In this document: positions 12,821-61,784 of the stretch, in pieces | How the letters are laid out: the number at the start of each line of letters is the position of its first letter | Position numbering within the stretch: position 1 is the stretch's first letter | From: Acutalibacteraceae bacterium | GTDB lineage: Bacteria > Bacillota > Clostridia > Oscillospirales > Acutalibacteraceae | Length of the DNA: 64,000 nucleotides | NCBI GenBank assembly: GCA_045598065.1 | Contig: JAZLLJ010000030.1 | Location: 7,832 to 71,831, forward strand | Direction of reading: 5' to 3' | Translations under genes and position numbers: made by a program | The notes under the pieces: generated by a model | Seen by the model: the letters and a program-made list of their open reading frames with translations, nothing else | Told to the model about the DNA's origin: nothing | Database searches by the model: none

Positions 12821-13972
12821 TCAGAAATCCAGGGTTTCCGGCGCCTTCATTTCCTCGCCGTCCATTTTGAACTTCTCATCGATCTCTTTTGCAAAAAACT
12901 CTCCGTTTCCGAATTCCTCGCCGTCCAAAATGTTTTCAAGAGCCTTGACGTCTTCTTCCTTCAGCGGATTCAAAACGTTTTCGTCCTCATACATCACGCG
13001 GTCGTATTCCTCGGTCTCCCAAGGCTCCGGTTCCGGCTCCGGACCGGGATCTTTGCCGGTCTCCAAAATCACCTTTTCGCGGTCGGAAAGCGTGCCGAGG
13101 AATTTCTCGGTCAAATCATACTCCGTGATCTTGCCGGCGGCATAGTCATCCAGCATCCCGCGGTTGTTTTCGTCCATCTCGAACAGAAGCAGCCGATCGG
13201 CAAGCAATTCGTTGCCGAATTGCTCGGACATTCTGGCGGAAAACTCAAACATTTTTTCTTCGATTTCTTTCTGTGTTGCCTTTTGGGCAAAATCTTTGAA
13301 TTCCGGCCCGAGGTCTTCGCCGCTGTTGAGCTTGTTATAGAGGATTCCCGTGGCGATGGCAGCTCCAATACAAGAAGCCGTATTGTGTTTGTAGGTATCC
13401 AAGCCGGTTGACAGCATCGCGCGCTCATCGGCATCTATCGAATTGCCTTTCAAATCGTTCACGATATCGTCCTGTTTTTCGAGCAAACCCTTCAGCATAT
13501 CGCGCAGGCGATCCTGCACTCTGTCCAATTTGTCGAAAAAGCCTCGGTATTCCGCAACGGCTTCTTTGTTTTTAAGATGGTATTCGCGGTCATCGTTGCG
13601 GTCGGCTCTGTGCAAGTTTTGTTCGTACACTTTAGCCACTTTCTCACGGTCTTCCGTCAGTTGCTCCAGCATTTTCTGCTTTTTATCCGGCCACTTTTCG
13701 TTCAACAGCTTCGACTCTTTGTAGTCGTTATATTCTTCGTCCCCTTTTCCGTCTCCGAACAGCTTGTTCCACGCATTGCGGAAAAAGGCCGCAAGAGAAA
13801 ACGACACTTTCGGCGGGTCGTTTTGCTCGATCATTTTTTCGATATGATCCAGTTCATCTTTGTAGTTTTTTCCGGGATAATTGAGAAGACGATCGGAACG
13901 CTCTTGAATATCCTCAAACTGTTGATTCCAAATGTTCCGCTTTTGTTCGAAATCGACACTAAACTTCGGCAT
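12821..13972 (-). CDS. hypothetical acidic, helix-rich cytoplasmic protein (383 aa)
   Basis: Long ORF with RBS GGAGGTGG 4 nt upstream of the ATG. Very D/E/K rich with a PEPEPEP linker. No TM segment and no recognised motif. Confidence 0.6.
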   Translation of the reverse strand: MPKFSVDFEQKRNIWNQQFEDIQERSDRLLNYPGKNYKDELDHIEKMIEQNDPPKVSFSLAAFFRNAWNKLFGDGKGDEEYNDYKESKLLNEKWPDKKQKMLEQLTEDREKVAKVYEQNLHRADRNDDREYHLKNKEAVAEYRGFFDKLDRVQDRLRDMLKGLLEKQDDIVNDLKGNSIDADERAMLSTGLDTYKHNTASCIGAAIATGILYNKLNSGEDLGPEFKDFAQKATQKEIEEKMFEFSARMSEQFGNELLADRLLLFEMDENNRGMLDDYAAGKITEYDLTEKFLGTLSDREKVILETGKDPGPEPEPEPWETEEYDRVMYEDENVLNPLKEEDVKALENILDGEEFGNGEFFAKEIDEKFKMDGEEMKAPETLDF

Positions 13973-40520: not shown

Positions 40521-40557
40521 AAAAACCGCCCGTATTCTTGCGAATACGGGCGGTTTT
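40521..40557. terminator. bidirectional terminator between the convergent epimerase gene and the T4SS-like operon
   Basis: AAAAACCGCCCGTATTC-ttgc-GAATACGGGCGGTTTT. Confidence 0.85.
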
Positions 40558-40561
40558 CATT

Positions 40562-41332
40562 TTATTCTTCGGTCTCGTCAATTTCCGGCGTTTCCTCGTC
40601 AGGTTCTTCATCAAGAGCGGCTTGCAGTTTCTCCAATTTAGCTTTCATCTTCTGTTTTTTCCGCTCTTTCTTTTCGGCGGCGGCGCGTTCTTTCATTTCC
40701 GCCTTGTACGCTTTTTTCTCCTCTTTGGTCATTGTTTTCTCGATGACTTTTTTGTCCTCGTCGGTCGCATCCTTCTTGGCTTTCTTAATCTTCACCACAT
40801 CCAGGCGTTCCAACTCGTAAGGAATATTCCGACTCCACTTCCAAAACGCGTGAGCAGCGTTAAGGCGCGCAATCAGCGTACGAGCGGTCACTACCGTCAT
40901 CTCCACGGCCTCCTCTTCCTTGTCGAGAGAAAGAAGAAGTACCGAGGGGTTATAGAGGACCGGGGCGTAAAAGGTGGCAATTTGGTCGGGATCAGCATCC
41001 AGAAGCACACGCCGTCCGAGGTTTTGCAAAGATTTGTCGCCCTCTTCAAGCAATTTGCGCGCCCGTTGTTTTTTTCGGGTATCGCCGGTTTTACGGTTCT
41101 TTTTCTTTTCCTCTTTAGAGAGCACGTCCGACGACGACTCCTCTTCCGAGAAACGATAGCGGCGCTTGATCGCCGTAACACCAAATACACGAGCAAAACC
41201 CGTCCCGTTAAACGTGCCAAGCATCCGCATTTTCACCGATTCCCGAGCGGCCACGATGCAAGTATCGTAGTATGCGATATATCCCAACAGAATGCGGCGT
41301 ATTTCTTTTTTTACATCATTGATGTCGCTCAT
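40562..41332 (-). CDS. hypothetical cytoplasmic protein (256 aa) with a Lys/Glu-rich tail; last gene of the T4SS-like operon
   Basis: Long ORF with no TM segment. Contains basic and acidic low-complexity stretches (KKKNRKTGDTRKKQRARK; C-terminal KERAAAEKKERKKQKMKAKLEKL...EEPDEETPEIDETEE). No family recognised. Confidence 0.6.
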   Translation of the reverse strand: MSDINDVKKEIRRILLGYIAYYDTCIVAARESVKMRMLGTFNGTGFARVFGVTAIKRRYRFSEEESSSDVLSKEEKKKNRKTGDTRKKQRARKLLEEGDKSLQNLGRRVLLDADPDQIATFYAPVLYNPSVLLLSLDKEEEAVEMTVVTARTLIARLNAAHAFWKWSRNIPYELERLDVVKIKKAKKDATDEDKKVIEKTMTKEEKKAYKAEMKERAAAEKKERKKQKMKAKLEKLQAALDEEPDEETPEIDETEE

Positions 41333-41371
41333 AACGGCTCTCTCTTTTCTAAAAGTTCGCGAATATACTGA

Positions 41372-42142
41372 TTATTCCGCTTCGGTCGAAACCGGCGCAA
41401 GAGTTACCCACTCGTGCGAGAGGATTGAAAATCCGCCATCGTCGTTGTGCTGCAATTCCACTTTCAAGGTATCGTTGTTTTTCGCGTCGCGAATATAAAT
41501 CAGACAGTTTTCCGTGCCGGAGCAAGCGAACGAATATCCGACAAGCGACACGCCGTTACCGACTTCTTCGCCCATATCCATTTTCTCATACTTCACTTCA
41601 CCGCGCATCGGGAAAAATTCCCATTCGGCATCTTCTTTTCCGGCAACGGTGACCGCAAAGCTACCGTCTGCCAGTTGTTTTACGGTATAGGAATCACTCT
41701 CAATGTCATCAGCCATTTCTTTGTGGCTCAAAGCCTTGTACGTGACCTTTTGCCCTTGCGCCGTTGCCGTCATGAAAATCTGACTGCGAACATCCGTGCG
41801 AGAGAAAACGTCTCGCAAAGAGAACGTCAAGCAAGACTCGCCGGACATCAACGGCTTAATAAGGAACGTAGTTCCTTCTTCATTGGTGCTTTCAAGAACG
41901 GTGGACAGCGTGTTTCGCTCGTAGTCCGTGACAACCCACTCGTATCCTTCGAGAGAGCCTTTGATAAACAGTTTAATGTTGTCACCGTCTTGCGTCACGG
42001 TACACGGATATTTCGCGCTGCTGTCGTCCGCGTTCAGCGGAACAATCGCAGGCTTTTTGGGCGTGCAAAGCCACAGAATCAAGAGCGCCACCGCCAAAGC
42101 GACCACGATACCCAAAACAATCCATATCACTTTCTTTTTCAC
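41372..42142 (-). CDS. hypothetical N-terminally membrane-anchored extracytoplasmic protein (256 aa)
   Basis: One N-terminal TM helix (IWIVLGIVVALAVALLILWLC) followed by a ~225-aa beta-rich domain. No family recognised. Confidence 0.6.
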   Translation of the reverse strand: MKKKVIWIVLGIVVALAVALLILWLCTPKKPAIVPLNADDSSAKYPCTVTQDGDNIKLFIKGSLEGYEWVVTDYERNTLSTVLESTNEEGTTFLIKPLMSGESCLTFSLRDVFSRTDVRSQIFMTATAQGQKVTYKALSHKEMADDIESDSYTVKQLADGSFAVTVAGKEDAEWEFFPMRGEVKYEKMDMGEEVGNGVSLVGYSFACSGTENCLIYIRDAKNNDTLKVELQHNDDGGFSILSHEWVTLAPVSTEAE

Positions 42143-42172: not shown

Positions 42173-45100
42173 TTATTCGGTCACAGAAGTTGTTGTCGGT
42201 TCGGTAACTTCCGTTTCCGAACCGGAGGCGACGGTTTCCGTCGTCTCCGGCGAAGTCTCTTCGGTAGGTGTCGGCTCGGTAGATGCTGTCGTCGGCTCAG
42301 TGGTCGTGAGCATCGTGTTTTCCGCCTCAACGCTGATTTCCACTACCGCCTGAACAGCCGGGTTTTCATCCGACGTGATAATCACACGGTACACTTCGAT
42401 TCCACCGGTCGTGTTCCGCGGCGAATCAAACACAATCTGACTGCCGTTTTTCGTGAAGCAATCCACTTCGGAAACCGCGTCGCCGACCGCTTTGACCGCC
42501 GACACCGTGTACCCGTATCCGGCAAGCGAACCGTTCACTGTCGGTTTAATCGTCACCTGATCGCCGGAGTACACGAGCACCGCGCTCTTCCCTTGGGAAT
42601 CGCTGTTGATGGTGCTGGATTTTTCAACTTTGCTGTTATAGAAACTGGTCTTCGTCGAAATCGAAATGTTGCACAGGTTAATCGTGCGCGGATCACCCTC
42701 ACGGATAATCGGATCGGACAATTTACGCTCAGCCAACTGCTCTTTGCCGTCAACAATCGTCCGCACTTTGAGATTTTCTATACCCCACGCCGCCTGGCTG
42801 TACGGCTCCTTGGAGTGCGGTTCAATAACGACATACCGAATCTCACTGCAATTCTTCATCAGGAAACTAAACGTTGCCGTTTTGCCGGCTTCCAGTTTCC
42901 CGTCGGTCATATAGGCACGCACGTCGTCGATGGCCATCGTACGGGTTTGGCGACCATCCTGGCTGACATAACCAATCGTCATGCGAATGGGATCCGCCGT
43001 AGACGAACTTACAACATCTGTGCTTTCCGCGGTAGTAACGGTAATTTCCACGGGCGCAACGTTGACATCCGTCACACTCATCAGTACCGGAGTAGCTGTA
43101 AGTTTGGCCGCTGCCGCGAAGTTATACCATTTGGTCGGCGTGCTGGTATCACCCTGTATCGGATAGCAACCCACCGTCATTCCGTCCACCGAAGCATTGA
43201 CGCTGCCGGTGCCGGCGACGGTAATGCCGGTAATCTCTTTCAGGTTGGGGATAGCAAAAGGAACCTGAACGAGCAATCCCGGTTTCACAGCCGCATACTT
43301 CATAATTTCCTGTCCATCAGCATCCTTTGTCTTCACATCCGTCAGGAAAACGTACGGCGAACTGTATTCTTTCCCCAGAGGATCGCCTTTCAGCGTATAG
43401 CGAATCGAAATAGCCACATCGGATGCCTCGGCAACCAAGCCGGAGGCAACCGTGTCCTTACCAAACAGCATCGTAACGATCTGCTGTTCAGTGGATATGG
43501 AATGCTTGCTCGAGGGGAATTGCTCACCGGTACTGCTGAATACGTTGATGGGATTTCCAGTACCCGGCGTATGATAATCCATATAGTAATATCCGATAAC
43601 CACACCGGAACGTACGTGCTGAACAATCATATGGTCCACCAAAGCGCTGACCTTATCCAAACTGGGCACGACGAGGTTCGTCTTGTTCAGCGTGGTAAAG
43701 CCGTACGCCGTGATGCCGGTAGCATAGAACACTCTGTCGGTAGTATCGTAGTTAAGACCGTTGACCGTCATTCGCATCGGGCCGTCGTGATCGGAAGATT
43801 CATACGTCAACTCCGCTCTGAGGTCATAGACCTTGGTGGTCTGCCCGTTCGATACTTTCACCGGTGACTGAGCGTTTTCCGCCATATAGACGTACACGTT
43901 CAGTGAATCGTTTCTATTTTCCGGTTTACGGGTGATCGTAGAGGACCAACCCTCTTCCGATTCCTTCGTTACAATAGTGTTGTCCTCAAAAGTGATTACC
44001 TGGTTACCCTCATCTTGGTTCGGAGGAAGAATGACGGCATAAGTATTTTGATCGCTCTTGGTAATCAATTTCATCTGATTATCGGTGTGACGTTGGAACT
44101 CATCCACGCAGTTTAGACGAAGCGTGCCGTTCTCCAACAACTGCCACACTTTCACTTCCTTGATGTTCCACGTTGTACCGTACACGTCGCGTGCAAAGAG
44201 TTCTATTTTCTTAATAGAAGTCACATCCGTCAGACTGATAAAGAAACGGTCGGTATGTCCCTCGCGGAACATATATTCGCGGTTGCTGACAGCGCAGACC
44301 ACTTCTCCGCCGCTCTCGCCGGTCATTTTGCCGAGTGACTTACCTTCACGTGTCTCGTAGCGAGGTTGCTGACCGTTGTACTCGTACATCTTCTGGACAA
44401 CGTCAAAGTTCTTCTTTTGTTCTCCGTCTTTATTGATGTAGGTAACCGTCGCCGTCACTGTTCCTTCAAACTGACTATCGAAAGCCTCACCCGAATACGT
44501 ATCCTCGGCGGCCACATTATACGGATCCGTCGTAATGGAGACCATCAAGTTGGAACTGACGCCCTTTCCGGAGACCGTAAACTCACGCACCAAGTCGCTG
44601 GCGTTACGGCCTTGAAGACCGGACGCCGTGTTTTTCGGCGCATCGTCGCGGTAGTCAATCTTAATCCATCCGACGTTGTCGAAGAACCACGAAGTCGAAG
44701 CCACCGCCGAACTTTTCTTCGTCACGGTGATACTCTTGATATTCAATTTATCGAAAATGTCGGTGCTCTCGTTGGTATCCGAATCGTCCGGCAAAATGCG
44801 AATCGCCGTCAAGTCGCCGAGGTCTTGGTTCGTATAAATGGTAAACGATTCTTTCTCACCGGCACGGAAACCGTCTGCCGTCAACTGTTGGTTTGCGAGA
44901 ACGTACCCACTGTTGCCGCCTTGGAACGTCAACTGGAAGTAGAACAAGTTTTTCGAGCCGGTGTCACCGTCTTTTTCGTTTGCGGAATCGTTGCCTGCCA
45001 CCTGGACTTCCACCTCATAGGTTCCACGAACACGGTTGAAGCCCAGATCCTGCATCGACTCCTTGTAGGTCATAGAATGCTTCAGTTTGTTCCAGTCGAG

Positions 45101-47131
45101 ATCGGTTTCGACGTCGCTTTCTTTGTTTTCGGAACTTTCTTCAAATTCCCCTTTACGGTTGGCGGTCTCTTCATCGCCACCGTTCACATAAATCGGCTCT
45201 TCACCGGGTTTCTCCTTGTCAGAGGCGCCATAAGAGCACATAATCGTCGATTTATCGAAATCACGGGTAATAATCCAGTTGGAAGTGACTTTGCCGGTAC
45301 CGGCGCCCTCTCCCCGTTCATGAAGTTCCAAAACGCGATGGCCGATCCATTCGGGATCGTAGATGATAAGGCTCTTCATCTGCCAGTCGTCGGCGTAGGT
45401 GGAATTCATAGATATATCAAACGACTTGAATTGAGAGACATCGTCCACATCCATAAAGAACATAATCTCTCCACCGGGACGCAGCCCATAATAGCGATGG
45501 TAATCCGGAAATGCCGAACCGTCATCGTAGAATACGTTATCATAGTACGGCCAATATCCATAGAAATCCTCGGGTGCGGTAATCAATGAGTAGGTTTTGG
45601 TGGTTTTGGTAACACCGGAGGTGGATTGATAGGTGAATTTAATTTTCACCTCAGACGTCGTGCCTGCATCTTTGGGCGTATCGGTCTTGATAACGACCAC
45701 GTAGCGACCTTTATAATCGGGCGACAAATCAGCACCGGTGTCATTTTCTTTCACCGAAAGCGTTTTCGGCGAGTCATAAGACAGCGTAATACCGCTGTTT
45801 CCTTCCGCCATCACATACGCAATCGGAATACCGTTGATAGTGTAGAACAAATCCGTCTCACCGTCACCGGTATATTCCAGTTGATCAACATTCTTATACA
45901 GTTTGAAGGACGAAATGGACAGCGTATCTTTTTCGAGTTTATCTTTCGTCCAGTTCTCTAAATCCGGTGAGAGTCTCCCTGAAACGGTGTTTTTAATCCC
46001 CGCGAGTTCAGGCACATCCAAGGTGTAGGACAGTTTGCAGGAAGTCATTTTCTTGAACGCAGGAAGCTTACCGGAGAACACTAACTGCTCTCCCTGCTGC
46101 AACACTTTCCACGGGCACAACGCTTTGTCGTATTCAGCATACCCGTTTTCCGTCGACCACGCAGCCGCGCTGGAAAGCACCGGGAGTTTTGCTGAATACG
46201 AAACACCGCCGACATCTTCATAGGTGATATCCAGCATCAGCACCTCTTTGATAAGTATCATATCCCGGAACGGACACTCGATCATCATTTTTTCAATACC
46301 GGCTTTATAAAAATCCGCAATATCGATTTCAAACAAGTATTCGTCGCTGTCATGGGTGGAATACGCCTCGTTGTTACCGCTGACGAACTGGTAATCGCCG
46401 CCGGAGGGGGCAAAGCAAAACACCTTGTCATTGCCGGACAGGTTTAAATCCACCGTCTTGTTGAAAGAGTAAATCGCTTTGCCGGAGAAATCAATGAACA
46501 GACTGGTAGAATAATATCCAATCATCTGCAGGCCGTAAAGCGTTTCCACTTTATAAATGCTGATACCTTTACAGGTCCACCCCTTCTTGTAGGTAGAAGA
46601 GTAATGTTCGTGAACGTCCACCGAGGTAATGCTGTCCACCGTGTAGTGCGGCGTAAACAGAATCTCATCGGTACTGTTGGGCATCAGCATATTGCTCGAC
46701 ATTAGATTATCAATGTCAACGGTATAGCCGGTATAGTTTTCGACGTTGCTCAGGCGTTTTTCCAAACCGCTGACAGACATCGCTAATTCATAGGTACTTT
46801 CTTTCGGATGGGAATTCGGCGACACAAATTCCACACGGGACACGCCACCCTTGTCCTTATAATGCACTGCAAAATAACTGACGTCCGCGCCGCCGTTGAC
46901 ACCGGTGGAAACGCGAAGGAGATAGGTGTTTTCACAGGCTTTCCCTTCCTGTGAAGCAACACTAACACCGCCGGATGACTTACTTATCCCTTCGTTTGCC
47001 GCAGATGCCGGCAAAGCAGGTGCAATATAAGGCATGACAAAGCAGAGGATCAGCAAAAGCGCCGTAAAACGCCATACTGTCCTCTTTGCTTTTTGCAAAG
47101 AATGCCGTGTTGTCGAGTGTTCCATAGCCAT
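42173..47131 (-). CDS. giant secreted protein (1652 aa) built from repeated beta-sandwich (PLAT/LH2-like) modules with a Thr/Glu/Pro-rich C-terminus
   Basis: Signal-like N-terminus (FTALLLILCFVMPYIAPALPASAANEG). At least 6-8 modules follow the pattern Y.v.v.T....G(T/A)....v...f....G......f.....d...i..i.i......W....i.v. No LPXTG motif and no C-terminal TM. Confidence 0.75.
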   Translation of the reverse strand: MAMEHSTTRHSLQKAKRTVWRFTALLLILCFVMPYIAPALPASAANEGISKSSGGVSVASQEGKACENTYLLRVSTGVNGGADVSYFAVHYKDKGGVSRVEFVSPNSHPKESTYELAMSVSGLEKRLSNVENYTGYTVDIDNLMSSNMLMPNSTDEILFTPHYTVDSITSVDVHEHYSSTYKKGWTCKGISIYKVETLYGLQMIGYYSTSLFIDFSGKAIYSFNKTVDLNLSGNDKVFCFAPSGGDYQFVSGNNEAYSTHDSDEYLFEIDIADFYKAGIEKMMIECPFRDMILIKEVLMLDITYEDVGGVSYSAKLPVLSSAAAWSTENGYAEYDKALCPWKVLQQGEQLVFSGKLPAFKKMTSCKLSYTLDVPELAGIKNTVSGRLSPDLENWTKDKLEKDTLSISSFKLYKNVDQLEYTGDGETDLFYTINGIPIAYVMAEGNSGITLSYDSPKTLSVKENDTGADLSPDYKGRYVVVIKTDTPKDAGTTSEVKIKFTYQSTSGVTKTTKTYSLITAPEDFYGYWPYYDNVFYDDGSAFPDYHRYYGLRPGGEIMFFMDVDDVSQFKSFDISMNSTYADDWQMKSLIIYDPEWIGHRVLELHERGEGAGTGKVTSNWIITRDFDKSTIMCSYGASDKEKPGEEPIYVNGGDEETANRKGEFEESSENKESDVETDLDWNKLKHSMTYKESMQDLGFNRVRGTYEVEVQVAGNDSANEKDGDTGSKNLFYFQLTFQGGNSGYVLANQQLTADGFRAGEKESFTIYTNQDLGDLTAIRILPDDSDTNESTDIFDKLNIKSITVTKKSSAVASTSWFFDNVGWIKIDYRDDAPKNTASGLQGRNASDLVREFTVSGKGVSSNLMVSITTDPYNVAAEDTYSGEAFDSQFEGTVTATVTYINKDGEQKKNFDVVQKMYEYNGQQPRYETREGKSLGKMTGESGGEVVCAVSNREYMFREGHTDRFFISLTDVTSIKKIELFARDVYGTTWNIKEVKVWQLLENGTLRLNCVDEFQRHTDNQMKLITKSDQNTYAVILPPNQDEGNQVITFEDNTIVTKESEEGWSSTITRKPENRNDSLNVYVYMAENAQSPVKVSNGQTTKVYDLRAELTYESSDHDGPMRMTVNGLNYDTTDRVFYATGITAYGFTTLNKTNLVVPSLDKVSALVDHMIVQHVRSGVVIGYYYMDYHTPGTGNPINVFSSTGEQFPSSKHSISTEQQIVTMLFGKDTVASGLVAEASDVAISIRYTLKGDPLGKEYSSPYVFLTDVKTKDADGQEIMKYAAVKPGLLVQVPFAIPNLKEITGITVAGTGSVNASVDGMTVGCYPIQGDTSTPTKWYNFAAAAKLTATPVLMSVTDVNVAPVEITVTTAESTDVVSSSTADPIRMTIGYVSQDGRQTRTMAIDDVRAYMTDGKLEAGKTATFSFLMKNCSEIRYVVIEPHSKEPYSQAAWGIENLKVRTIVDGKEQLAERKLSDPIIREGDPRTINLCNISISTKTSFYNSKVEKSSTINSDSQGKSAVLVYSGDQVTIKPTVNGSLAGYGYTVSAVKAVGDAVSEVDCFTKNGSQIVFDSPRNTTGGIEVYRVIITSDENPAVQAVVEISVEAENTMLTTTEPTTASTEPTPTEETSPETTETVASGSETEVTEPTTTSVTE

Positions 47132-47226: not shown

Positions 47227-47532
47227 TTATCCGTTATCAATATGCAAAAGCCCTGCAAATCCGGTCATTTCAAATACTTCCATCACCATACGGTTAACAC
47301 GGCGAAGGACCAGTTCTCCCTCTCGCTTACGCATTTTGATGTGGAGATTTTTAAGAATGCGCAGACCGGCGGAAGAAACGTACTCCATTCCTTCCATATT
47401 CAAAATCACACGGGAAAACCGTTCGGAAACGTTTTCAAAAATCGTTTCCATTTCCTTTGACGTTACCGAATCCAGTCGGCCCATCAGAATGAGTTCTCCT
47501 TCATCCCCTCGGTTAATCAGTTTTACTTTCAT
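47227..47532 (-). CDS. STAS-domain protein (anti-sigma-factor antagonist, SpoIIAA/RsbV-like)
   Basis: About 101 aa from MKVKLINRGDEGELILMGRLD. Conserved phospho-serine context MEYVSSAGLRIL. The ORF extends to 47571, but the internal Met gives the normal STAS length. Confidence 0.8.
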   Translation of the reverse strand: MKVKLINRGDEGELILMGRLDSVTSKEMETIFENVSERFSRVILNMEGMEYVSSAGLRILKNLHIKMRKREGELVLRRVNRMVMEVFEMTGFAGLLHIDNG

Positions 47533-47571
47533 AGCAGGAAAAGAGAACCTCCTTTCTGTCCTTTGTTTCAC

Positions 47572-50500
47572 TTAACCACGTTTCGAATTATAATGCGCCA
47601 GTTCTTCAATCGTAATGGCAATTACGGTCTCACCGTAATCTTTCATACGATCAATCGGCGACACATCGCCAAGGCGCTTGGCTTCCATAACCAAAAGCGA
47701 CATAATATCGAAGCCGGATTTCTTCTTTTCCTCGTCGCCTTCGGCAGCGGAATCCGGTTTTTCCGCCGGTTTTTCTTCCGGTTTTTCCGTCGGTTTTTCT
47801 TCCGGTTTTTCCGTCGGTTTTTCTTCCGGTTTTTCCGCCGGTTTTTCTCCCGGCTTTTCTTCCGGTTTTTCTGCCGCCGGCGTCTCTGCTTTTTCGGCAA
47901 CAGGCGGTATGTCGTTGGCCTCGTCTCTATCCACAGTCACTGTGCCGGAAGCGCCCGGAATCATACCCGGCACCTCATACTGCGCCACCGTAGGCTCCGT
48001 TGCCAATCCGCCGGAAGCATTCGTTCCACGCTCCACTGCCAAAGCGGCATCCACGGCGCGGCGAATCTCCTCCTGCATAGCATCGTGGCTGAATTTAGAC
48101 AAAAGTTCCGCCAACAACCGCTCTGTTTCGCCGGAAGAAGCCGGTGCCTGCACCACAACAGGTTGCATCAAAGGTGTGGCCGACGCCGCGATAAGCGCCG
48201 GATCCACCGTCGGAACGACCGGAGCGGAAACCGCGTTGCTCTCGGGCAGGTCGAACTCCTCTTCCAGCTCGATTTCTTCTGTAAAGGCAACCGCCTTTTC
48301 AGAAGAACGTTTAGTTTCTTCGGCGGCAAGTTCTTCTTCCTCGGTAATCTCTTCAAATACCACGTGCGCACGAGCTTCTTTTTCAACGATTTCCTCTTCC
48401 ATAACCTTCTTCACGTGGACATTCTGTTCGTGAATTTCACGGGAATCGCCCATAAAGTCATCCCATGCGGCTTCACCGTCGTCATCACGGAAATAACGGG
48501 AAATATACTCCCGTTCTTTGAACATCGCCACAACGTCCTCCGGCACTGCCACCTTAAAGGTGGAACGGCTTTGGGGCGACATAATAGCAAATGCCTGACC
48601 GCGAGGAGCAGAAATAATTTCTTCCTGCTCACTTTCGTTGATTCCGCCCGCTTTTTCATACAGCGTGCACAAATCTTCCATATCGTTCGGCGCCAAAGAG
48701 AACACAAAACTGTATTGGCAGGCATTAATGATAGCCGTGGATTTGCGAGCAATTTCTTCCGAGCCCACAAAGTCCTTGATGTTCTGGGTAATGACAATCT
48801 GCATACCGTTGTATTTACGAATACGCTTCGCCAACTGATACATAAAGTCAAGCGCGACCGGGAATTTGGTATCAATAAACACGTGTGCCTCATCAATAAC
48901 TACCACAATTTTACGCTTGACACCGTAACGCATATTGTAGTCGCGGTTTTTGATGATCTCGTTGTCGATGTATTTCAGCACCAAAAGCATCTGTGCATTG
49001 GCAATGGTGCCGTTACGGTTGGCAAGCAAGCTTTGGAAGTTGAACACCGTGAAGTTCTCGTCGGTCGTAACCGTAGACGGACCGTTCCAAATGTTGGCGT
49101 TGCGCCCACCGGCAGAGAATTTCGCAATGTAGTTCATCAGCGTACGAAGCATAGTGCGAATATACTCGTTGTCGGTGGTCTGGAACTCCGACAGCACCGC
49201 ATCGTACAAGTCATCAAACACCGGGTAATCTTCCGGGCGCAGACGGCTCAAATCCGTTTCGGCGGTGATACCCATATTGGTATACATCCGGTCGATAATG
49301 GAGTTTAAGTATTCCATCGCATCGCGGTCGCAATCCGGCAGAATCTGGCGGAAGAACTCCTCTAAGAACTGCAGGTGTGTCGCATAACTGCCCGAAACCG
49401 TCTCCGTTCCCTCTTCGTCATCATCCAAAGCGGTGATGATATGGAACGGGTTGAGTCGCCCATATTGCGCGTTGCCCACGTTGATAAACTTGCCGTGGAG
49501 GTTGTGCGCCAATTCGGTATATTCATTTTCCGGATCAAGGATAAAGATTTTGCTGTCATCTGCAGCCAAGTTAGCAAGCAGACTCTTGGTGGCATAGGAT
49601 TTACCGGAACCGGATTTACCCACAATCACCATATTGGAGTTAACGCGCTCGGAATCGCGGCGGAAGAAGTCAATAAACACCGGCACGCCGTCCGATTGAC
49701 CGAGTTTAATACCCTTTTCATCCGAAATGTGGGCGAAAATCCACGGATAGGAAGCCGCAACAGAGTTGCTGGGAATTCCGCGGCCGTCTTTGTGCATAGG
49801 ATCCCACGCGCTGATTTGACTGCCCACAAACGCATGGACTTGGTCAAAGTCCATATTGTTAAGGCGCAGGTTGGATTCACTGTAAAGTCGACGGACCGTG
49901 CGTTTCATATTGGTGATGTTGGCAAGCGACGACTCTTTCAATTTGGGATCGTCGTTAAGCACGCACGTTTGGTTGATATCGTAGCAAGTCACGTAGATGT
50001 TGACCGAAAGAAGGGTTTCGTTATCCCCTTGCAGTGTGGCCAGTAAATCGCTTAACGTCTCAATGTGTTCTTGCAGTTCAATACGTTTGGAATCGATACC
50101 GGTAGCACGATATTGGGCGCGCAGTTCTTGCAGCGAGAAGTCGATGGCACGCACCGATTTATTGCGGTCCATCGGCGTGCATTTCACCACCACTTTGGTG
50201 GCCGGCATAGACATTACACCGGCAAGCCACGCATCGCCGACAACCGACGGATAGTTGACCACTCGCATATTGTGGGTAACAATTTGGTTAACGAGAACCG
50301 TCCGGGCTTTCATCTGCACGTACTGTGGCATCGCCCATTTGGCATAATCCTCGGGTTTCACGTTGTCAATCTCTTTTTCGTCAAAATCCAACGCGTTGGA
50401 ATATTTAAGGAACACTGCCAATTCTTTGTTTCCGAGGCGGTGAACTTTGAGTTCGGCGTTACGCAAAAGGTCCAGCGCAGAATGCACCGCATTGTTCAGT

Positions 50501-51465
50501 TGATTGCGATCGCTGTCGAACAGCACGACGTAATAGAACGGCACCACCACTTTGTCACCGAAGCAGAGATTGCGCAGGTCGTTGATTCGATCATACAGCA
50601 CCTCCACACGGGCTTTCATCTCATCTTCCGAGAGAAAGCCTTTTTCGTAGGACTGTTTCAGTTCGTCCAATTTGTCATACTCATGGTCCAAATGGCTTTC
50701 AAAATCGACCGGTCGCTCAATCTTTACAATGTTGGCGGCAAATTCCGGCGGCAAAGAACGCAGCACACGCCCTAAACCGTTTTCAATGGAGTTTGCGCGG
50801 CGAGAAGGCGAGAAGAAACGGAATTCCACCGGATCAATCTCAATCGCCGCACCGTAATATTTGTTGCCGTATTTGATAAAATTGTCCCGAATATCGGTAA
50901 ACGCTATAATCTCTTCCATCTCAAAAGAGTTAGCGGAAGGCGCGTTTTTCTTTTTCGCTTTTTCGCGTTTTTTCGCGGCACTTTGGTTGGCACGTTTCAG
51001 CCAAATCGCATCTTTTTCCTCATCGGACACGTTTTTGTCCTTCAGGATTTTGTCATCCGCTTTGCGCTCGGCTTTTTCGGCTTTGAGACGCGCCTTGCGG
51101 TTCAACTCGTTTTCCGGCGCCTGCTGTCCGTCCACAAACAGTTCCTCAAACGCCGCTTCTTTCATTCCCTTGTCGTTTTGTAAACGCAAAGAAGCGTCGT
51201 CATAGGTGCGCTCGTAATGGTGGCGATACCCGAAATGCCGCAACATATGGAGCAAAAAGATATAGTTCGGCTCTTTGTCTAAACGCACCAAAAGGATTGC
51301 TGCCAAAAACAGCAATCCTGCGGCAATAAACAGTCGTCCGGGGATGGTCGAAAGCAGAATGAGTAAAATCAGTCCCGCTGCCACAACACCAATGGCAACG
51401 TCTGCAATTCGAACGCCCTTAAAGAACTCGACTTGTACTTTTGTTCTGCCCGGAATCAGGCGCAT
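47572..51465 (-). CDS. VirB3(PrgI)-VirB4-like T4SS ATPase fusion with a ~330-aa acidic repetitive C-terminal tail
   Basis: 1297 aa. Two N-terminal TM helices, then the IEIDPVEFRFFS VirB4 N-domain. Walker A GKSGSGKS is encoded at 49597-49621 and Walker B VVVIDEAHVF at 48877-48906. The tail is rich in E/A/P with (PEEKPxEK)n. Confidence 0.85.
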   Translation of the reverse strand: MRLIPGRTKVQVEFFKGVRIADVAIGVVAAGLILLILLSTIPGRLFIAAGLLFLAAILLVRLDKEPNYIFLLHMLRHFGYRHHYERTYDDASLRLQNDKGMKEAAFEELFVDGQQAPENELNRKARLKAEKAERKADDKILKDKNVSDEEKDAIWLKRANQSAAKKREKAKKKNAPSANSFEMEEIIAFTDIRDNFIKYGNKYYGAAIEIDPVEFRFFSPSRRANSIENGLGRVLRSLPPEFAANIVKIERPVDFESHLDHEYDKLDELKQSYEKGFLSEDEMKARVEVLYDRINDLRNLCFGDKVVVPFYYVVLFDSDRNQLNNAVHSALDLLRNAELKVHRLGNKELAVFLKYSNALDFDEKEIDNVKPEDYAKWAMPQYVQMKARTVLVNQIVTHNMRVVNYPSVVGDAWLAGVMSMPATKVVVKCTPMDRNKSVRAIDFSLQELRAQYRATGIDSKRIELQEHIETLSDLLATLQGDNETLLSVNIYVTCYDINQTCVLNDDPKLKESSLANITNMKRTVRRLYSESNLRLNNMDFDQVHAFVGSQISAWDPMHKDGRGIPSNSVAASYPWIFAHISDEKGIKLGQSDGVPVFIDFFRRDSERVNSNMVIVGKSGSGKSYATKSLLANLAADDSKIFILDPENEYTELAHNLHGKFINVGNAQYGRLNPFHIITALDDDEEGTETVSGSYATHLQFLEEFFRQILPDCDRDAMEYLNSIIDRMYTNMGITAETDLSRLRPEDYPVFDDLYDAVLSEFQTTDNEYIRTMLRTLMNYIAKFSAGGRNANIWNGPSTVTTDENFTVFNFQSLLANRNGTIANAQMLLVLKYIDNEIIKNRDYNMRYGVKRKIVVVIDEAHVFIDTKFPVALDFMYQLAKRIRKYNGMQIVITQNIKDFVGSEEIARKSTAIINACQYSFVFSLAPNDMEDLCTLYEKAGGINESEQEEIISAPRGQAFAIMSPQSRSTFKVAVPEDVVAMFKEREYISRYFRDDDGEAAWDDFMGDSREIHEQNVHVKKVMEEEIVEKEARAHVVFEEITEEEELAAEETKRSSEKAVAFTEEIELEEEFDLPESNAVSAPVVPTVDPALIAASATPLMQPVVVQAPASSGETERLLAELLSKFSHDAMQEEIRRAVDAALAVERGTNASGGLATEPTVAQYEVPGMIPGASGTVTVDRDEANDIPPVAEKAETPAAEKPEEKPGEKPAEKPEEKPTEKPEEKPTEKPEEKPAEKPDSAAEGDEEKKKSGFDIMSLLVMEAKRLGDVSPIDRMKDYGETVIAITIEELAHYNSKRG
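47750..47880. repeat. 12/24-bp in-frame tandem repeat inside the VirB4-like tail
   Basis: CCGGTTTTTCCG/CCGGTTTTTCTT units repeated about 10 times, encoding PAEKPEEKPTEKPEEKPTEKPEEKPAEKP. Confidence 0.85.
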
Positions 51466-54318: not shown

Positions 54319-55275
54319 TCAACGCACACGCAATTTCTTTCTGGAAACAACAAGATACGCAATGAGTCCTCCGAGCGTCGCCAACAACAGCAGGGCAAAC
54401 GCGACAGCGGACAGGTTAAAATAAATCAAAATGCGGAAATTATAGGTAGTTTCATTGCCTGCGGCATCCGTGAGAATCAGGTGGTAGACACCGCTTTGTG
54501 TCAATTTGTCTTTCTTTTGAATTTCCCGATTGCCGAGCAGGATTTTAATGGAAACATCCGGCTCCAAATCGGAAATATCCACCGGGCCTTTGGCCACGTT
54601 GTTTTTCACCGCTTCCAATTTCAATGTCGGCGGCGTGTGATCCACTTCAACGCTAAGGGTGTACGGATGGTCAATCACATCACAGCGATAACTGATTGTG
54701 TATTTTCCCTCCGCAGACATATCCGCCACGTTAAAACTAAACGGAGCCTCCGCTCCATCGAGACGGGCATCTGTAATAGTAAACCCCTCAGGAACCATAA
54801 AAGTTTCAAGAAGTCCGGTTTTTTTTGCTAAAATTGTGAAGCGGAGGATTTGTTCGGCGCGAGTACCAACACCCGTAGCCAACAGAATGTATTCTCCGGT
54901 TTCTTCGATGTGGTCATAATCCACATCCTTCACCGTTTCTCCGTCACGGGTAAGTGTCGGAGTGACGCCGGCGGGAATTTTTATTTTCACCGGTTCCGTC
55001 GTGTACATTCCATCCGCCACAGAAGCATAAAAACTACCTTCCGGCGTAACGGTTTCTTTGGTATAGCAAAACATTCCCTCGTTTTTATCGTACCAGGTCG
55101 TTTCGTTGACACAAACAAGCGTGTAGCCGGTTTCCTCGTCCAGAGGTTGGTCGGTATCGGGGTTGATTTGTTCGATGGTGGTGGAAACCGCCGCTGCATT
55201 GAATCCAAGCGACATACACAGCACAACCGTCAAAACTATCGCAATAAGCTTTTTCACGTTCTCCACCCCTCTCAC
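54319..55275 (-). CDS. hypothetical surface protein (318 aa): signal peptide, beta-rich ectodomain, C-terminal TM anchor
   Basis: N-terminal LIAIVLTVVLCMSLGFNAAAV, C-terminal LSAVAFALLLLATLGGLIAYLVVSRKKLRVR. Its start overlaps the stop of the upstream VirD4-like gene by 4 nt. Confidence 0.65.
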   Translation of the reverse strand: MRGVENVKKLIAIVLTVVLCMSLGFNAAAVSTTIEQINPDTDQPLDEETGYTLVCVNETTWYDKNEGMFCYTKETVTPEGSFYASVADGMYTTEPVKIKIPAGVTPTLTRDGETVKDVDYDHIEETGEYILLATGVGTRAEQILRFTILAKKTGLLETFMVPEGFTITDARLDGAEAPFSFNVADMSAEGKYTISYRCDVIDHPYTLSVEVDHTPPTLKLEAVKNNVAKGPVDISDLEPDVSIKILLGNREIQKKDKLTQSGVYHLILTDAAGNETTYNFRILIYFNLSAVAFALLLLATLGGLIAYLVVSRKKLRVR

Positions 55276-57269
55276 TGCTTCAGCACGGTAGCGTTTCGTG
55301 CCTTGATATCATAAAACGCTTCATCCGCTCGGAAAATGTGAGAACGAATCTCGTCCAAATCCATCCGACCGAACTGATAGAAGTCGCATTTGTATGACGG
55401 GGTGTATTTGGTCATCAGCGGATAGTTACCGAACGTCACGATAATGGCGTTACCGGTCGAGGTTTTATTGTTAAGTTTTTGCAAATCCGACGGATAAATA
55501 AGCGGACGAGTCTGCAACTGGTTACTGACGTTCATATCGCCGTCTTTCGAACCGAGACCGGCGGAAGTCGAAGTGGTACGCACCGTTTTGTTACCGCACA
55601 ACTCCGAGAACTCTTTACAAGTGCCGATATCGTTCGAACCGATAAACATTTTCAGCGCACAGTTGGATTTCACAACGTCCGCCACGCCCTCGCCGTAAAT
55701 ATTGTTGAGCTGGGCGTAACTCTGCACCACCATATTGAACCAAATCTTACGGCTACGACCGACGGTAATCATCTTGTCGAATTTCTCGATACGCGGCATA
55801 TTACCGAACTCATCGAGGATGAAATACACGTTGCGCGGCAAAGACAAATCCTCGCGCGCGGACGCGACTTTAATTAAACCCTTATAGAGACTCAGGATAA
55901 ACAACGACGCCAATCCGTGTCGAGTATCCTTTTCGTCCGGGATTTTAAGGAACAACGCCGTGGGACGTTCGGCGAATTGTTCGGCGCGGATATCCGTGGC
56001 CGAAGTCAAGCCGCAAATGCCGCGGTCGTTGAAAATATTCAATTTATCGAAGGTAATAGACATATAGCTGGAAAGCGTTTGATCCGCCGCCGCCAACACC
56101 TGGCGAGACAGCGACACCGCTTGGGACAGTTTGCTTCTGCCCTCAAAATAGCGTTTTAAATGGATATAGTTTTTCTCACTGTTAGTGAGAATCTTGTTAA
56201 GATTAAAGAAATTGAATTTCTCCTTGGTCATGCCGAGGCGTTTATCTTGGCTGTCTTCGAGCATGGCAATGCAGGTCGCCAAAATGATAGAACGGGCACC
56301 TTTTTCCCACAAGGGATCTTTTTCGTTGGTAATGGGGCAAATACCCGAAATGAGGTCGTTTAAGTCCTCGTACATCTCATCGTAAATGCGCTGTTTCGCC
56401 ACAGAAACGTCGTCCTGACAGTGGCGAAGGTCCGTATACGCTTTGCCGTCCCACTCGCACCACACCTCACCGGCAGGCTCGTCATCCATCCGCTTAAGGG
56501 ACGGATAATCATCAAGGCTGTCGCGGTGAGCAAGGATATCCTTGCCCATCTCGGCGTACTGCTGATACATATCCCAAACGGATTCCAACGGATTCCAACG
56601 GGAGGAAGAATAGGTGTCGCGCAAATCGAGCACCATCACGTCATAACCGCGGGATTTCAGGAATTTGGAGTGCATATCGAACAACTCGCCCTTCGGGTCG
56701 GTCATCACCATGCTGGAACCGCAGTTGGTCGCGCCGATTAACTGAATCATGGGGTTAATAAACGTGGTGGTTTTACCGGAACCGGTAGAACCGATAACAA
56801 GCGCATGCGCACCGGACATCATATTGATGTGCATTTGCCCTTTTTTGTCCACAATCGCACGCAACGGCGCGCCGTCTTTCTTTGCATTCGGCAGCATTTC
56901 ATAGGTCAACGGGGTAAACAACTTATCCCGTTCTTTTTCGGTCATATAGCGGCTGTTCTCCAACACGGATTCCACGTCGCCGTTTTTACCTTTTCCCATA
57001 ATGTTGTGACCGCGGCCGAAGTTGCTGCCCATAAAGACCAAAAGCAAAACCAGCGCCACAATCACAAAGCCGGTCAGCCACGTACCGATGGACACCAAAT
57101 ATTTCCAGTAGAGCACGAACGATTCGCCATGAATGATACCTCGTGCGTTGGCAATAATATTACGCAACAGAAAGCCCAAAAGGCCTGCTCCGAACAATGC
57201 AATCGCGCCATACGCAATCAACTTGTCCAGAGGCAGGCTTTTAAACCAATCTTTGAGTTTGTTCATCAT
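55272..57269 (-). CDS. VirD4/TraG-type type IV coupling protein
   Basis: 665 aa. Two N-terminal TM helices. Walker A IGSTGSGKTT is encoded at 56766-56795. The FILDEFGNMPRIEKF...GRSRKIWFNMVVQSYAQLNNIYG block is typical of T4CPs. Confidence 0.85.
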   Translation of the reverse strand: MMNKLKDWFKSLPLDKLIAYGAIALFGAGLLGFLLRNIIANARGIIHGESFVLYWKYLVSIGTWLTGFVIVALVLLLVFMGSNFGRGHNIMGKGKNGDVESVLENSRYMTEKERDKLFTPLTYEMLPNAKKDGAPLRAIVDKKGQMHINMMSGAHALVIGSTGSGKTTTFINPMIQLIGATNCGSSMVMTDPKGELFDMHSKFLKSRGYDVMVLDLRDTYSSSRWNPLESVWDMYQQYAEMGKDILAHRDSLDDYPSLKRMDDEPAGEVWCEWDGKAYTDLRHCQDDVSVAKQRIYDEMYEDLNDLISGICPITNEKDPLWEKGARSIILATCIAMLEDSQDKRLGMTKEKFNFFNLNKILTNSEKNYIHLKRYFEGRSKLSQAVSLSRQVLAAADQTLSSYMSITFDKLNIFNDRGICGLTSATDIRAEQFAERPTALFLKIPDEKDTRHGLASLFILSLYKGLIKVASAREDLSLPRNVYFILDEFGNMPRIEKFDKMITVGRSRKIWFNMVVQSYAQLNNIYGEGVADVVKSNCALKMFIGSNDIGTCKEFSELCGNKTVRTTSTSAGLGSKDGDMNVSNQLQTRPLIYPSDLQKLNNKTSTGNAIIVTFGNYPLMTKYTPSYKCDFYQFGRMDLDEIRSHIFRADEAFYDIKARNATVLKQ

Positions 57270-59447: not shown

Positions 59448-59852
59448 TTACAGTTTGCTGGCGTCAATGACGTCGCCGCCGCTGACGTTGTCGTTCACCC
59501 ACTCGGCGAGGAGAGGCGTGACCAGGTTCAGGACAAGGATCAAGACGAAGATCAGCACGAAGCCGATAACCGCGTTTTGCAGGTGAGATTTCGCTTTCTC
59601 ACGATCCTGCGGCTCTTCCGCTTTGGCGAATTTCACACCGAGGATGATGCAGTACAGAGCGCCCACGGCAACGACGAGGACGAGGGCCGCCGTCATCAAC
59701 GTGCGGAGAAGGTTAACGATCGGGTCGGTAACTGCTTCCAGGCCCTCACCTTCCGCCAGAACGGCGAAGCCCATGAGCATCGCGGTGCCCATAATGGCAG
59801 CGAGACGCGCGGTCAGTTGTTTTGCGGTGAATTTTTTGCTGAGTTTTTTCAT
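59448..59852 (-). CDS. VirB2/TrbC-like pilin-type small membrane protein (134 aa)
   Basis: Signal-like N-terminus, then two hydrophobic helices separated by a short charged loop (KFAKAEEPQDREKAKSH), the canonical T4SS pilin topology. RBS GGAGGAAC. Confidence 0.55.
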   Translation of the reverse strand: MKKLSKKFTAKQLTARLAAIMGTAMLMGFAVLAEGEGLEAVTDPIVNLLRTLMTAALVLVVAVGALYCIILGVKFAKAEEPQDREKAKSHLQNAVIGFVLIFVLILVLNLVTPLLAEWVNDNVSGGDVIDASKL

Positions 59853-60371: not shown

Positions 60372-60833
60372 TCATCCCTCTAACTGCGTTTTGAGCGCTT
60401 CTCTTGCCCGCATTAGCGTGACCTTTATCGTGTTTTCCGGTTTGCCGAGAATCTCGGCAATTTCCTTAATCTTCAGGTCTTGTAGGTAGAACAGCGTAAT
60501 GACTTCCCGTTGGGCATCGGGAAGTTTTTGGATAGCGCGCCGCAAATCGAGAATTTCATCGTTTTCGGTGCGTTCCCCTTTGTCGTCGGTCAACCCTTCA
60601 TCCAACTCCACGTCGTACGTCCGGCCGGACAGCATATCTTTCGCGCAGTTGATGGTCACGCGAATGAGCCAGGCCTTGCGATGTTCCTCGCTTTCAAAGG
60701 AGCGTTCCTTCTTGAAATACGCGAGGAACGTCTCGGAGTAAACATCTTCCGCGTCAGCGGGGTTGCGAACATAGCGCATGGCAATTTTATACACCATGTC
60801 GGAATACGTGCGGACGATTTCTTCGCCGTTCAT
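60372..60833 (-). CDS. ECF-type (group IV) sigma-70 family sigma factor
   Basis: Region 2 (AEDVYSETFLAYFKK...KAWLIRVTINCAKD) and region 4 HTH (REVITLFYLQDLKIKEIAEILGKPENTIKVTLMRAREAL). The ORF opens at 60902; the start was chosen at MNGEEIV. Confidence 0.85.
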   Translation of the reverse strand: MNGEEIVRTYSDMVYKIAMRYVRNPADAEDVYSETFLAYFKKERSFESEEHRKAWLIRVTINCAKDMLSGRTYDVELDEGLTDDKGERTENDEILDLRRAIQKLPDAQREVITLFYLQDLKIKEIAEILGKPENTIKVTLMRAREALKTQLEG

Positions 60834-61094
60834 AAACAACACCCGCTCCTTTCGGGAAAGGTTACAACCCATCCAAATTTTTTGCGCAGCTTTTGGGACC
60901 ACAGTATCATATATACGCGCACATGATAGCCCAATTTCCCTTATTTTCGCATATTATATAAGAAAAGTCAACCCCTCTTTACAAGAAATAGTATAAATTT
61001 CTTCCATAATTCACCGTTTTTCGACCGACACCGGGGTTTTCGGAATATTTTTTCTCCTCTTTGCATAGCGTAAGACCAAAAAGGAGGCTTTTTT

Positions 61095-61388: not shown

Positions 61389-61403
61389 GGAAGCCGCGGC
61401 TAT

Positions 61404-61784
61404 ATGGAACTTATCAACAACGAAAAAGCGCTGTATACCTTGTTTTTGTGCATAGGATACGGCGTGGTATGCGGAGCGCTTTTTGCCGGCATTGCCCACC
61501 TGCTTCCACTGCGAAAGCACCAGAAAATTCGGCGAATGATACGGGACATATCTTTATCTTTTTGGTCAGCTCTCGGACTGTTTCTTTTGTCGCTTTCCCT
61601 CACCGACGGCCGTCCGCGTTTTTCTCTTTTTTTCGGAACAGCCATCGGTTGGTTTTCTTGGAAATTGATTTTTAAGCAACCGTTTTTCACGGCAATTCAT
61701 TGGCTCTGCCGTCCGATCGCGCTATGTTGTCATACAATCCGTTCGTTTTTTTATTCTCTGAGGGTAATCATTCAAAAAAAATAA
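61404..61784 (+). CDS. yabQ: spore cortex biosynthesis protein YabQ
   Basis: 126-aa membrane protein immediately after yabP, with YabQ-like helices. Confidence 0.7.
   Translation: MELINNEKALYTLFLCIGYGVVCGALFAGIAHLLPLRKHQKIRRMIRDISLSFWSALGLFLLSLSLTDGRPRFSLFFGTAIGWFSWKLIFKQPFFTAIHWLCRPIALCCHTIRSFFYSLRVIIQKK

Follow-up and report, generated by a model that had tools for sequence, protein, structure and literature searches.

A predicted Sec-exported giant protein of PLAT-like domains encoded in a chromosomal T4SS-like operon of Acutalibacteraceae

Introduction

How do type IV secretion systems (T4SSs) of monoderm bacteria cross the thick cell wall and make contact with a target? Reviews describe these systems as without pili and dependent on LPxTG adhesins, with a VirB10-like component yet to be found (PMC12857230). 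This open question is raised by a 64,000-nucleotide stretch of an Acutalibacteraceae genome (GenBank assembly GCA_045598065.1, contig JAZLLJ010000030.1, positions 7,832 to 71,831 of the forward strand), hereafter the window, in which a T4SS-like operon on the minus strand encodes a protein of 1652 amino acids (aa), hereafter the giant. The locus offers a different solution: a VirB2-like pilin and a conserved, non-sortase giant of PLAT domains, with no relaxase found. Window coordinates of the features are collected in Table 1.

The giant is a constant, collinear, and fast-diverging part of the chromosomal T4SS-like operon. It is a Sec-exported, beads-on-a-string chain of about 11 beta domains, and in our reading of the profiles and models seven of these probably belong to the PLAT/LH2 superfamily: M4 as the canonical member and M1, M2, M3, M5, M7, and M8 as a divergent paralogous group. 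We consider it about an even bet (probability roughly one half) that the giant is a Sec-exported surface fibre that gives target contact to a non-conjugative T4SS-like machine. Our verdict is that of a probable T4SS-associated surface protein whose domain content and anchoring would be unprecedented.

Conservation and synteny of the giant

An exhaustive HMMER search returned 326 clusters (50% identity) at E ≤ 1e-3, 265 of these at E ≤ 1e-30; a word-indexed homologue search, run with the protein and then with an alignment, grossly under-reported the family at only 6–7 clusters. Among the 150 matches listed, nearly all were giant (most of 1300–3300 aa, with a few shorter fragments) and collinear with the query. 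The full-length profile spans approximately positions 100–1600 in about 150 of the 155 members retrieved, so the whole architecture is conserved, beyond a repeat unit. Family lengths run from ~800 to 3278 aa with large, variable N- or C-terminal extensions; some members reach 3100–3300 aa by N-terminal extension, and one long homologue carries a NosD-type beta-helix. The hosts are Acutalibacteraceae and related uncultured gut and rumen Clostridia. No name for any family member was found in the sources examined, and no published description of PLAT domains with T4SSs or conjugation, or of PF18895, was found that covers this protein or its cluster.

The gene had been linked to a T4SS-like system from the sequence alone, and the link proved strong. 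VirB4 and/or STAS genes adjoin the giant gene in 8 of the 9 sampled loci, down to 27% identity of the giant. In this count the close group, the distant group, and locus L001 were taken as one locus each, and six further members were drawn from across the family (STAS-giant or VirB4-giant adjacency in five of these). In the ninth locus, L011, the upstream gene is truncated and unannotated. The STAS gene lies directly upstream of the giant gene in L002–L006, L010, L012, L013, and L014. The operon is conserved in the close species, and in L002, for which the called genes are listed, the aldose-epimerase/ABC-transporter flank is conserved as well. The distant loci have the order pilin, one gene, p318, p907, VirB4, giant, one gene, VirD4, one gene, STAS. 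Chance co-location of the giant with T4SS genes was rejected on the ground of synteny that persists to such low identity.

Of the cluster genes whose homology is measurable, the giant diverges fastest. In the distant loci, which come from metagenome-assembled genomes (MAGs) of rumen Bacillota and Clostridiales, its identity is 27–28%, against 55–57% for VirB4, 62–65% for VirD4, and 52–54% for the pilin. In the MAGs of close Acutalibacteraceae species it is 56–59%, against ~86% for VirB4 over its full length and 92–96% for VirD4; that comparison covered these three proteins and not the pilin. Within the giant, M4 stands out with a conservation of 2.55 bits per column vs ~1.5 elsewhere, and its near-invariant residues include D723, G725, S726, N728, N747, Q748, Q749, D794, K795, and W822. 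The acidic and polar loop D723-G725-S726-N728 may, judging from these residues, be a ligand or Ca2+ site, the role for Ca2+ being speculation.

A protein so firmly tied to its cluster could also be a structural part of the apparatus, such as a stalk or scaffold that spans the wall, or a factor at the base or tip of a pilus, and would then fill the role of VirB5 or VirB9/VirB10, which are absent from monoderm systems. Strict co-occurrence, the fixed place after VirB4 and STAS, the collinear conservation of the entire architecture, and the VirB2-like pilin encoded in the cluster all fit such a part, and the very conserved M4 suggests a constant partner. The VirB10 replacement in Gram-positive systems must, according to a review, be an unidentified component (PMC12857230). 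However, the giant outpaces every other measurable cluster gene in divergence between the distant loci, its variable extensions fit a core channel part less well than they do an exposed specificity element, and no homology to VirB proteins was detected with Pfam, NCBIfam, or profiles of the protein halves searched against PDB sequences. On balance, a structural role seems somewhat unlikely.

Module structure and internal repeats

At least six to eight tandem modules of ~110–130 aa had been counted by eye in the sequence-only reading, which gave what are here M1, M3, and M4 as examples. Seven PLAT-like modules were resolved; the module sizes are 114–171 aa and the arrangement is not strictly tandem: about four beta domains outside the PLAT set (L34, L56, M6, and M9) sit between or after the PLAT-like modules.

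The repeats are too diverged for shallow comparisons. BLASTP of the giant against itself (word size 2, E ≤ 10) gave no off-diagonal match, hhalign in self-mode with a 7-sequence alignment of the giant returned nothing, and windowed hhalign with only 7 homologues detected a single module pair. Deep module profiles were then built from 155 family members. In windowed HHalign comparisons of these profiles, M1, M2, M3, M5, M7, and M8 were interrelated at probabilities of 92–98% with M3 as the hub, and their scores of 41–79 exceeded those of reversed or column-shuffled controls (≤18); the respective values were 48.6 vs ≤13 for M1 and 47.8 vs ≤16.8 for M2. When independent orthologue sets were re-aligned, hhalign gave 98.1% for M3/M5 (116 columns), 96.1% for M1/M3, and 96.2% for M8/M3. 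The repeats seen by eye were thus recovered as a six-module network above shuffled controls.

M4 is connected to this network through M8 (HHalign 72%, score 30.6 vs a shuffled maximum of 12.9, 84 collinear columns), and its link to M5 is marginal. Compared with M3, the modules M4, M6, and M9 reached only noise level in HHalign, and M6 and M9 had no significant HHalign link to any other module of the giant. The repeat is not limited to the PLAT-like units: aa 561–680 (the end of M3 and L34; window ~45092–45451) align with aa 966–1062 (the end of M5 and L56; ~43946–44236) at 95–97%. Since the L34/L56 match follows M3 and M5, a two-domain unit was duplicated, not PLAT units alone.

Assignment of the modules to PLAT

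In Pfam, M4 exceeds the gathering score of PF01477 over aa 723–819 (28.7 bits vs the cutoff of 23, E = 2.4e-6), and this is the sole above-threshold Pfam domain in the giant. The M1, M2, M3, M5, M7, and M8 segments of the query giant gave no Pfam PLAT match. Orthologues of M1, M3, M5, and M8 were scanned as well; for M2 and M7 the PLAT assignment comes from HHalign alone. Among 51 diverse M3 orthologues, PLAT was the most frequent match (8/51, best E = 1.9e-4), followed by ATS3 (2/51), and was the only Pfam family that recurred. Direct PLAT matches were found in 1 of 40 M5 orthologues, in none of 38 for M1, and in none of 41 for M8. Sequence profiles added nothing from the PDB: the half-protein profiles found nothing, and the M3 profile gave only a chance scaffoldin match (E = 0.59).

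The two halves of the giant (aa 40–900 and aa 800–1620) were modelled with AlphaFold2, using 7 sequences per alignment. Both models are all-beta and bead-like, with mean predicted local distance difference test (pLDDT) values of 46.5 and 69.0, respectively. Foldseek searches of the PDB matched the N-terminal half to 5-lipoxygenase (5-LOX; 7ttj_B and 6n2w_B) at probability 1.0, with a root-mean-square deviation (rmsd) of 2.5–2.9 Å over ~120 columns, and also to 8R-lipoxygenase and to the alpha-toxin of C. absonum (1olp, 0.99). The C-terminal half, which lacks M4, matched pancreatic-lipase-related protein 2 (1bu8, probability 1.0, rmsd 4.4 Å, 132 columns) and lipoprotein lipase (6u7m). By E-value, the best Foldseek matches were generic arrays of Ig, cadherin, CBM22/CBM, and ConA-like domains; against viral structures only generic multi-beta-sandwich arrays were found.

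The assignment to PLAT/LH2 that had been made by eye therefore stands for M4 by Pfam, is supported for M3 by its orthologues and for both halves by Foldseek, and fails for about four further domains. Solved PLAT domains were matched at probabilities of 0.99–1.0, and the models did not turn out to have another common fold in place of PLAT.

The same data can be read more sparingly, with M4 as the sole PLAT domain, the M3-type modules as generic beta-sandwiches (Ig, CBM, or C2-like), and the giant as an ordinary surface glycan-binding protein that is located beside the cluster by chance. The lack or rarity of direct Pfam matches for M1, M8, and M5, the noise-level comparison of M3 with M4, the generic arrays among the best Foldseek matches by E-value, and the NosD-type beta-helix on one long homologue all agree with this. 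It is contradicted by the recurrence of PLAT, and of no other Pfam family, in the M3 orthologues, by the lipase PLAT match of a C-terminal model without M4, and by M8, which bridges M4 and M3 well above the shuffled controls. The collinear alignments of M3 and M8 to the lipoxygenase PLAT domain also roughly match that of the certified M4 in quality, and synteny in 8 of 9 loci is at odds with chance. We consider the single-PLAT account very unlikely.

Export and protein termini

The gene is the longest open reading frame (ORF) of the window, in agreement with its earlier description as the largest gene. The N-terminus, MAMEHSTTRHSLQKAKRTVWRFTALLLILCFVMPYIAPALPASA followed by ANEG, has a basic n-region, a single hydrophobic segment (aa 22–40), and an A-x-A site, which bears out the signal-like N-terminus noted before; no second transmembrane (TM)-like segment was found beyond aa 22–40. 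An N-terminal hydrophobic segment is present in 139 of 156 family members. At the other end, no LPxTG motif, C-terminal TM segment, or Pfam anchor match was found in the giant, as had been read. In the family, LPxTG is found in 0 of 156 members and a C-terminal hydrophobic segment in only one, by which a sortase-anchored adhesin is ruled out. The final 46 aa form the Thr/Glu/Pro-rich tail described earlier and have a net charge of −10. Family tails are rich in Thr, Glu, and Ser, and some look Big_2-like.

The sequence-only reading had left the choice between cargo and adhesin. As cargo, the giant would be a T4SS effector, namely a toxin aimed at membranes or a factor for interaction with the host, brought to target cells by means of its PLAT domains. 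Its acidic C-terminal tail and its place within a secretion operon would suit such a substrate, and PLAT targets membranes in clostridial alpha-toxin and lipoxygenases, both of which are among the Foldseek matches. T4SS effectors are marked by the absence of a Sec signal and by a C-terminal or internal signal that VirD4 recognises, however, and the giant has a classical Sec-type signal peptide, which routes export through Sec and not through VirD4-VirB4. No catalytic or toxin domain was detected with Pfam or NCBIfam, the latter giving no match to the giant at all. Presence and order of the gene are invariant, unlike in typical effector repertoires, with no immunity-like polymorphism apparent, and a 177-kDa chain of folded beta domains would be an improbable T4SS substrate. 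Delivery as cargo is thus quite unlikely. An adhesin or surface fibre fits better, because of the Sec-type signal peptide and the fixed, collinear membership in the cluster.

Operon and genomic setting

The minus-strand operon runs from ~61 kb to 40.5 kb (window 40521–60902, ~20 kb) in the order ECF (extracytoplasmic function) sigma factor, a 148-aa protein, pilin, p672, VirD4, p318, p907, VirB4, STAS, giant, p256a, and p256b. Of the other products, p672 (672 aa) is secreted, p318 (318 aa) has a signal peptide and a C-terminal TM segment, and p907 (907 aa) is polytopic; p672 and p907 gave nothing when searched against the PDB. The genes p256a and p256b are syntenic in L002–L006.

Table 1. Position and evidence of the giant, its modules, and the annotated genes of its operon in the window.
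Feature	Residues (aa)	Window position	Strand	Description	Evidence
Giant gene	1-1652	42173..47131	(-)	1652 aa; mature form ~177 kDa, isoelectric point 4.7	ORF list, composition
Giant N-terminus	1-45	46997..47131	(-)	Sec-type signal peptide or possibly uncleaved signal anchor, ending ALPASA/AN	Read from sequence
M1	62-205	46517..46948	(-)	Divergent PLAT-like module with helical insertion	HHalign to M3 96%, 109 columns
M2	250-420	45872..46384	(-)	Divergent PLAT-like module	HHalign to M3 95%, to M8 92%
M3	470-605	45317..45724	(-)	PLAT-like module, hub of the repeat family	Pfam PLAT in 8/51 orthologues
L34	606-699	45035..45316	(-)	Small conserved domain, homologous to L56	HHalign
M4	700-822	44666..45034	(-)	Canonical PLAT/LH2, most conserved module of the family	Pfam PF01477
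M5	856-1008	44108..44566	(-)	Divergent PLAT-like module, modelled pLDDT ~70-86	HHalign to M3 98.1%, 116 columns
L56	1009-1072	43916..44107	(-)	Small beta domain, homologous to L34	Model, HHalign
M6	1073-1192	43556..43915	(-)	Beta-sandwich outside the PLAT set	All-beta in model
M7	1210-1340	43112..43504	(-)	Divergent PLAT-like module	HHalign to M3 92-94%
M8	1355-1468	42728..43069	(-)	PLAT-like module, bridges M4 and the M3 group	HHalign to M3 96%, to M4 72%
M9	1513-1606	42314..42595	(-)	Ig-like beta-sandwich outside the PLAT set	Model strands, pLDDT ~75-85
Giant tail	1607-1652	42176..42313	(-)	Acidic Thr/Glu/Pro/Ser-rich tail without anchor motif	Sequence, composition
ECF sigma factor gene		60372-60902	(-)	Head of the operon	
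VirB2-like T4SS pilin		59448..59852	(-)		Pfam T4SS_pilin PF18895, E=9.8e-12
VirD4-type coupling protein		55272..57269	(-)		Pfam T4SS-DNA_transf 7.9e-51, TraG-D_C
VirB4-like ATPase		47572..51465	(-)	1297 aa, N-terminal TM segment	Pfam P-loop_TraG 6.9e-22, DUF87
STAS gene		47227..47571	(-)	Anti-sigma-factor antagonist-like, directly upstream of the giant gene	Pfam STAS, E=8e-14
p256a and p256b		40562..42142	(-)	Downstream, same operon; p256a 256 aa with N-terminal TM segment, p256b 256 aa, cytoplasmic and highly charged	

The surroundings are chromosomal. The other large ORFs scanned in the window belong to the core chromosome (TilS, DnaB, RNase J, ValRS, the Rnf complex, GS-III, and DeoC/PNP, and further an ABC transporter, an aldose epimerase, an S1-domain protein, and DivIC). 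Pfam gave no match to a relaxase, integrase, or recombinase in the cluster proteins and the other large ORFs of the window, where a very divergent relaxase among the unannotated proteins is possible. The giant had no tblastn match in 72,556 plasmids, and the best plasmid counterparts of the operon's VirB4, in Spiroplasma and B. thuringiensis, share <30% identity with it. A passenger of a conjugative plasmid or an integrative and conjugative element (ICE) was rejected in view of the core-chromosome flanks and the failure to find a relaxase or integrase.

In the distant locus L001 (9699–12175), genes for an RsbW-like kinase (HATPase_c_2) and a SpoIIE phosphatase come after STAS. The window itself contains a 493-aa SpoIIE-domain phosphatase at 9122–10603, 37 kb from the STAS gene. 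With the STAS gene upstream of the giant in most loci, these genes suggest, as far as domain annotation can tell, partner-switching control of the T4SS-like machine.

Some further features were observed in and around the operon. A strong, bidirectional intrinsic-terminator-like hairpin with a 17-bp stem and 8 G-C pairs lies after p256b at 40521–40558; it separates the converging T4SS-like operon and aldose-epimerase/ABC-transporter genes, and is the one terminator that the genes of the operon share. VirB4 and p907 both have low-complexity repeats. VirB4 ends (~47755–47898) with about ten (E/T/A)EKP units (EKPEEKPGEKPAEKPEEKPTEKP...), and these EKP-type repeats also give rise, in another frame and on the complementary strand, to Arg/Lys-rich ORFs that are spurious. 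NAVPANN repeats are found at the C-terminus of p907 (~51560–51740). At the upstream edge of the cluster, a 96-aa ORF (61400–61690, minus strand) has a sub-threshold match to DUF4096, the N-terminal domain of IS4/IS5 transposases (E = 0.0023), and may be a transposase remnant. Farther away on the minus strand, ORFs of 383 and 695 aa (12821–13972 and 14030–16117) without a Pfam match at E ≤ 1e-5 are positioned between an SPFH-domain gene and the tRNA-Leu/ValRS region.

Comparison with known systems

The PF01477 domains of lipoxygenases, pancreatic and lipoprotein lipases, and clostridial alpha-toxin are beta-sandwiches of ~120 aa. M4 resembles them by passing the Pfam threshold, the M3 orthologues match the same hidden Markov model, and both half-models superpose on them in Foldseek (probability 0.99–1.0). 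In those enzymes, however, PLAT is a single accessory domain, whereas the giant has seven copies and no enzyme, and six of its copies are so diverged that Pfam recognises them rarely or never. Another parallel is LOXHD1, a vertebrate stereocilia protein with 15 PLAT repeats (PMC8051682). It is likewise large, made essentially of repeated PLAT domains, and without a catalytic domain, and its presumed function is to connect a membrane with a protein machine. As a eukaryotic protein, LOXHD1 stays inside the cell, whereas the giant is exported and has non-PLAT beta domains interleaved, so that the two share the domain type only.

Among the proteins of monoderm T4SS clusters, LPxTG adhesins such as PrgB (the aggregation substance of pCF10; PMC12857230) are similar to the giant in being large, secreted, and multi-domain, and in providing cell-cell contact for the machine, which for the giant is only a proposed role. 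They differ in that the giant family has no LPxTG/sortase signal (0/156), its cluster is chromosomal with no relaxase found, and its domains are PLAT. No polymer-adhesin domain (GbpC / antigen I/II) was matched in the giant by Pfam or NCBIfam at E ≤ 10. By analogy, the giant would be PrgB-like in its proposed working without being a member of the PrgB type.

Measured against conjugative T4SSs of the mating-pair-formation classes MPF-FA/FATA, the cluster has VirB4 and VirD4, and neither a relaxase nor a plasmid or ICE location with an integrase was found. The T4SS of Patescibacteria is likewise relaxase-less and pilin-encoding, and is derived from the monoderm MPF-FATA class (PMC12102498). Monoderm VirB4/VirD4, a VirB2-like pilin of PF18895, a chromosomal location, and no relaxase found are common to it and the cluster described here. 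The differences are the phylum, as the present cluster belongs to Bacillota (Acutalibacteraceae), and the giant multi-PLAT protein and STAS/partner-switching module that are constant in this cluster; adhesins such as PrgB were undetected in the Patescibacteria dataset (PMC12102498). Gram-positive T4SSs are stated to lack VirB2 pilins both there (PMC12102498) and in a 2025 review (PMC12857230), and the pilin in the giant's cluster is notable for that reason.

Proposed role

PLAT domains bind lipids and proteins (PMC8051682), and surface adhesins serve mating-pair formation in Gram-positive T4SSs (PMC12857230). In the surface-fibre reading, the giant would remain at the surface once exported by Sec, through an N-terminal signal anchor that stays uncleaved or through contacts with other cluster proteins. 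As an extended chain of about 11 domains of ~4 nm each, it would reach ~40 nm, enough to cross a Gram-positive wall, and could there provide the machine with its means of contact or adhesion. M4, the conserved PLAT, would have a constant binding partner, which may be a machine subunit or a membrane lipid, perhaps together with Ca2+, and specificity for the target would come from the divergent PLAT copies and the variable ends. The giant would in this way take the place that LPxTG adhesins have in conjugation systems of Gram-positive bacteria.

Several points weigh against this reading. The tie of M1, M2, M5, M7, and M8 to PLAT is only transitive, through M3 (for M8 also through M4), so that their membership remains a likelihood drawn from profile comparisons. 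The Foldseek PLAT matches carry no query coordinates and are not assignable to single modules; they come from multi-domain models, the N-terminal of which is of low confidence (46.5). A lipoxygenase PLAT reference profile was built from three PDB-verified sequences, with the 5-LOX domain checked against PDB 3o8y; with this thin profile, HHalign gave 33% for the positive control M4, 26% for M3 (85 collinear columns), 13.5% for M8 (80), and ~0 for the others. Adhesion, surface retention, and ligand binding of the giant are inferred only. The protein could simply be released, given that no wall-anchoring motif or domain was found.

A wider proposal would be that the operon, with its VirB2-like pilin and no relaxase found, encodes a contact machine of gut and rumen Clostridia that has not been described before, a T4SS-like system domesticated for a non-conjugative use. 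The giant would then be a membrane-engaging tether that grips the membrane of the target or the donor and couples the channel to the recipient, as a counterpart in bacteria of PLAT arrays of the LOXHD1 type. We put this forward as speculation that is unlikely to hold. From its gene content, the machine appears to be controlled by partner switching through STAS and by an ECF sigma factor.

Significance

Should the giant be no more than a surface fibre, its gene still serves as a useful marker of this type of cluster. If it is the contact element, it would represent a new class of accessory proteins for Gram-positive/monoderm T4SSs, and PLAT arrays, known to date from eukaryotic proteins such as LOXHD1, would then also occur on the surface of bacteria. 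The giant would also give a handle on the use that abundant commensals make of a non-conjugative T4SS.

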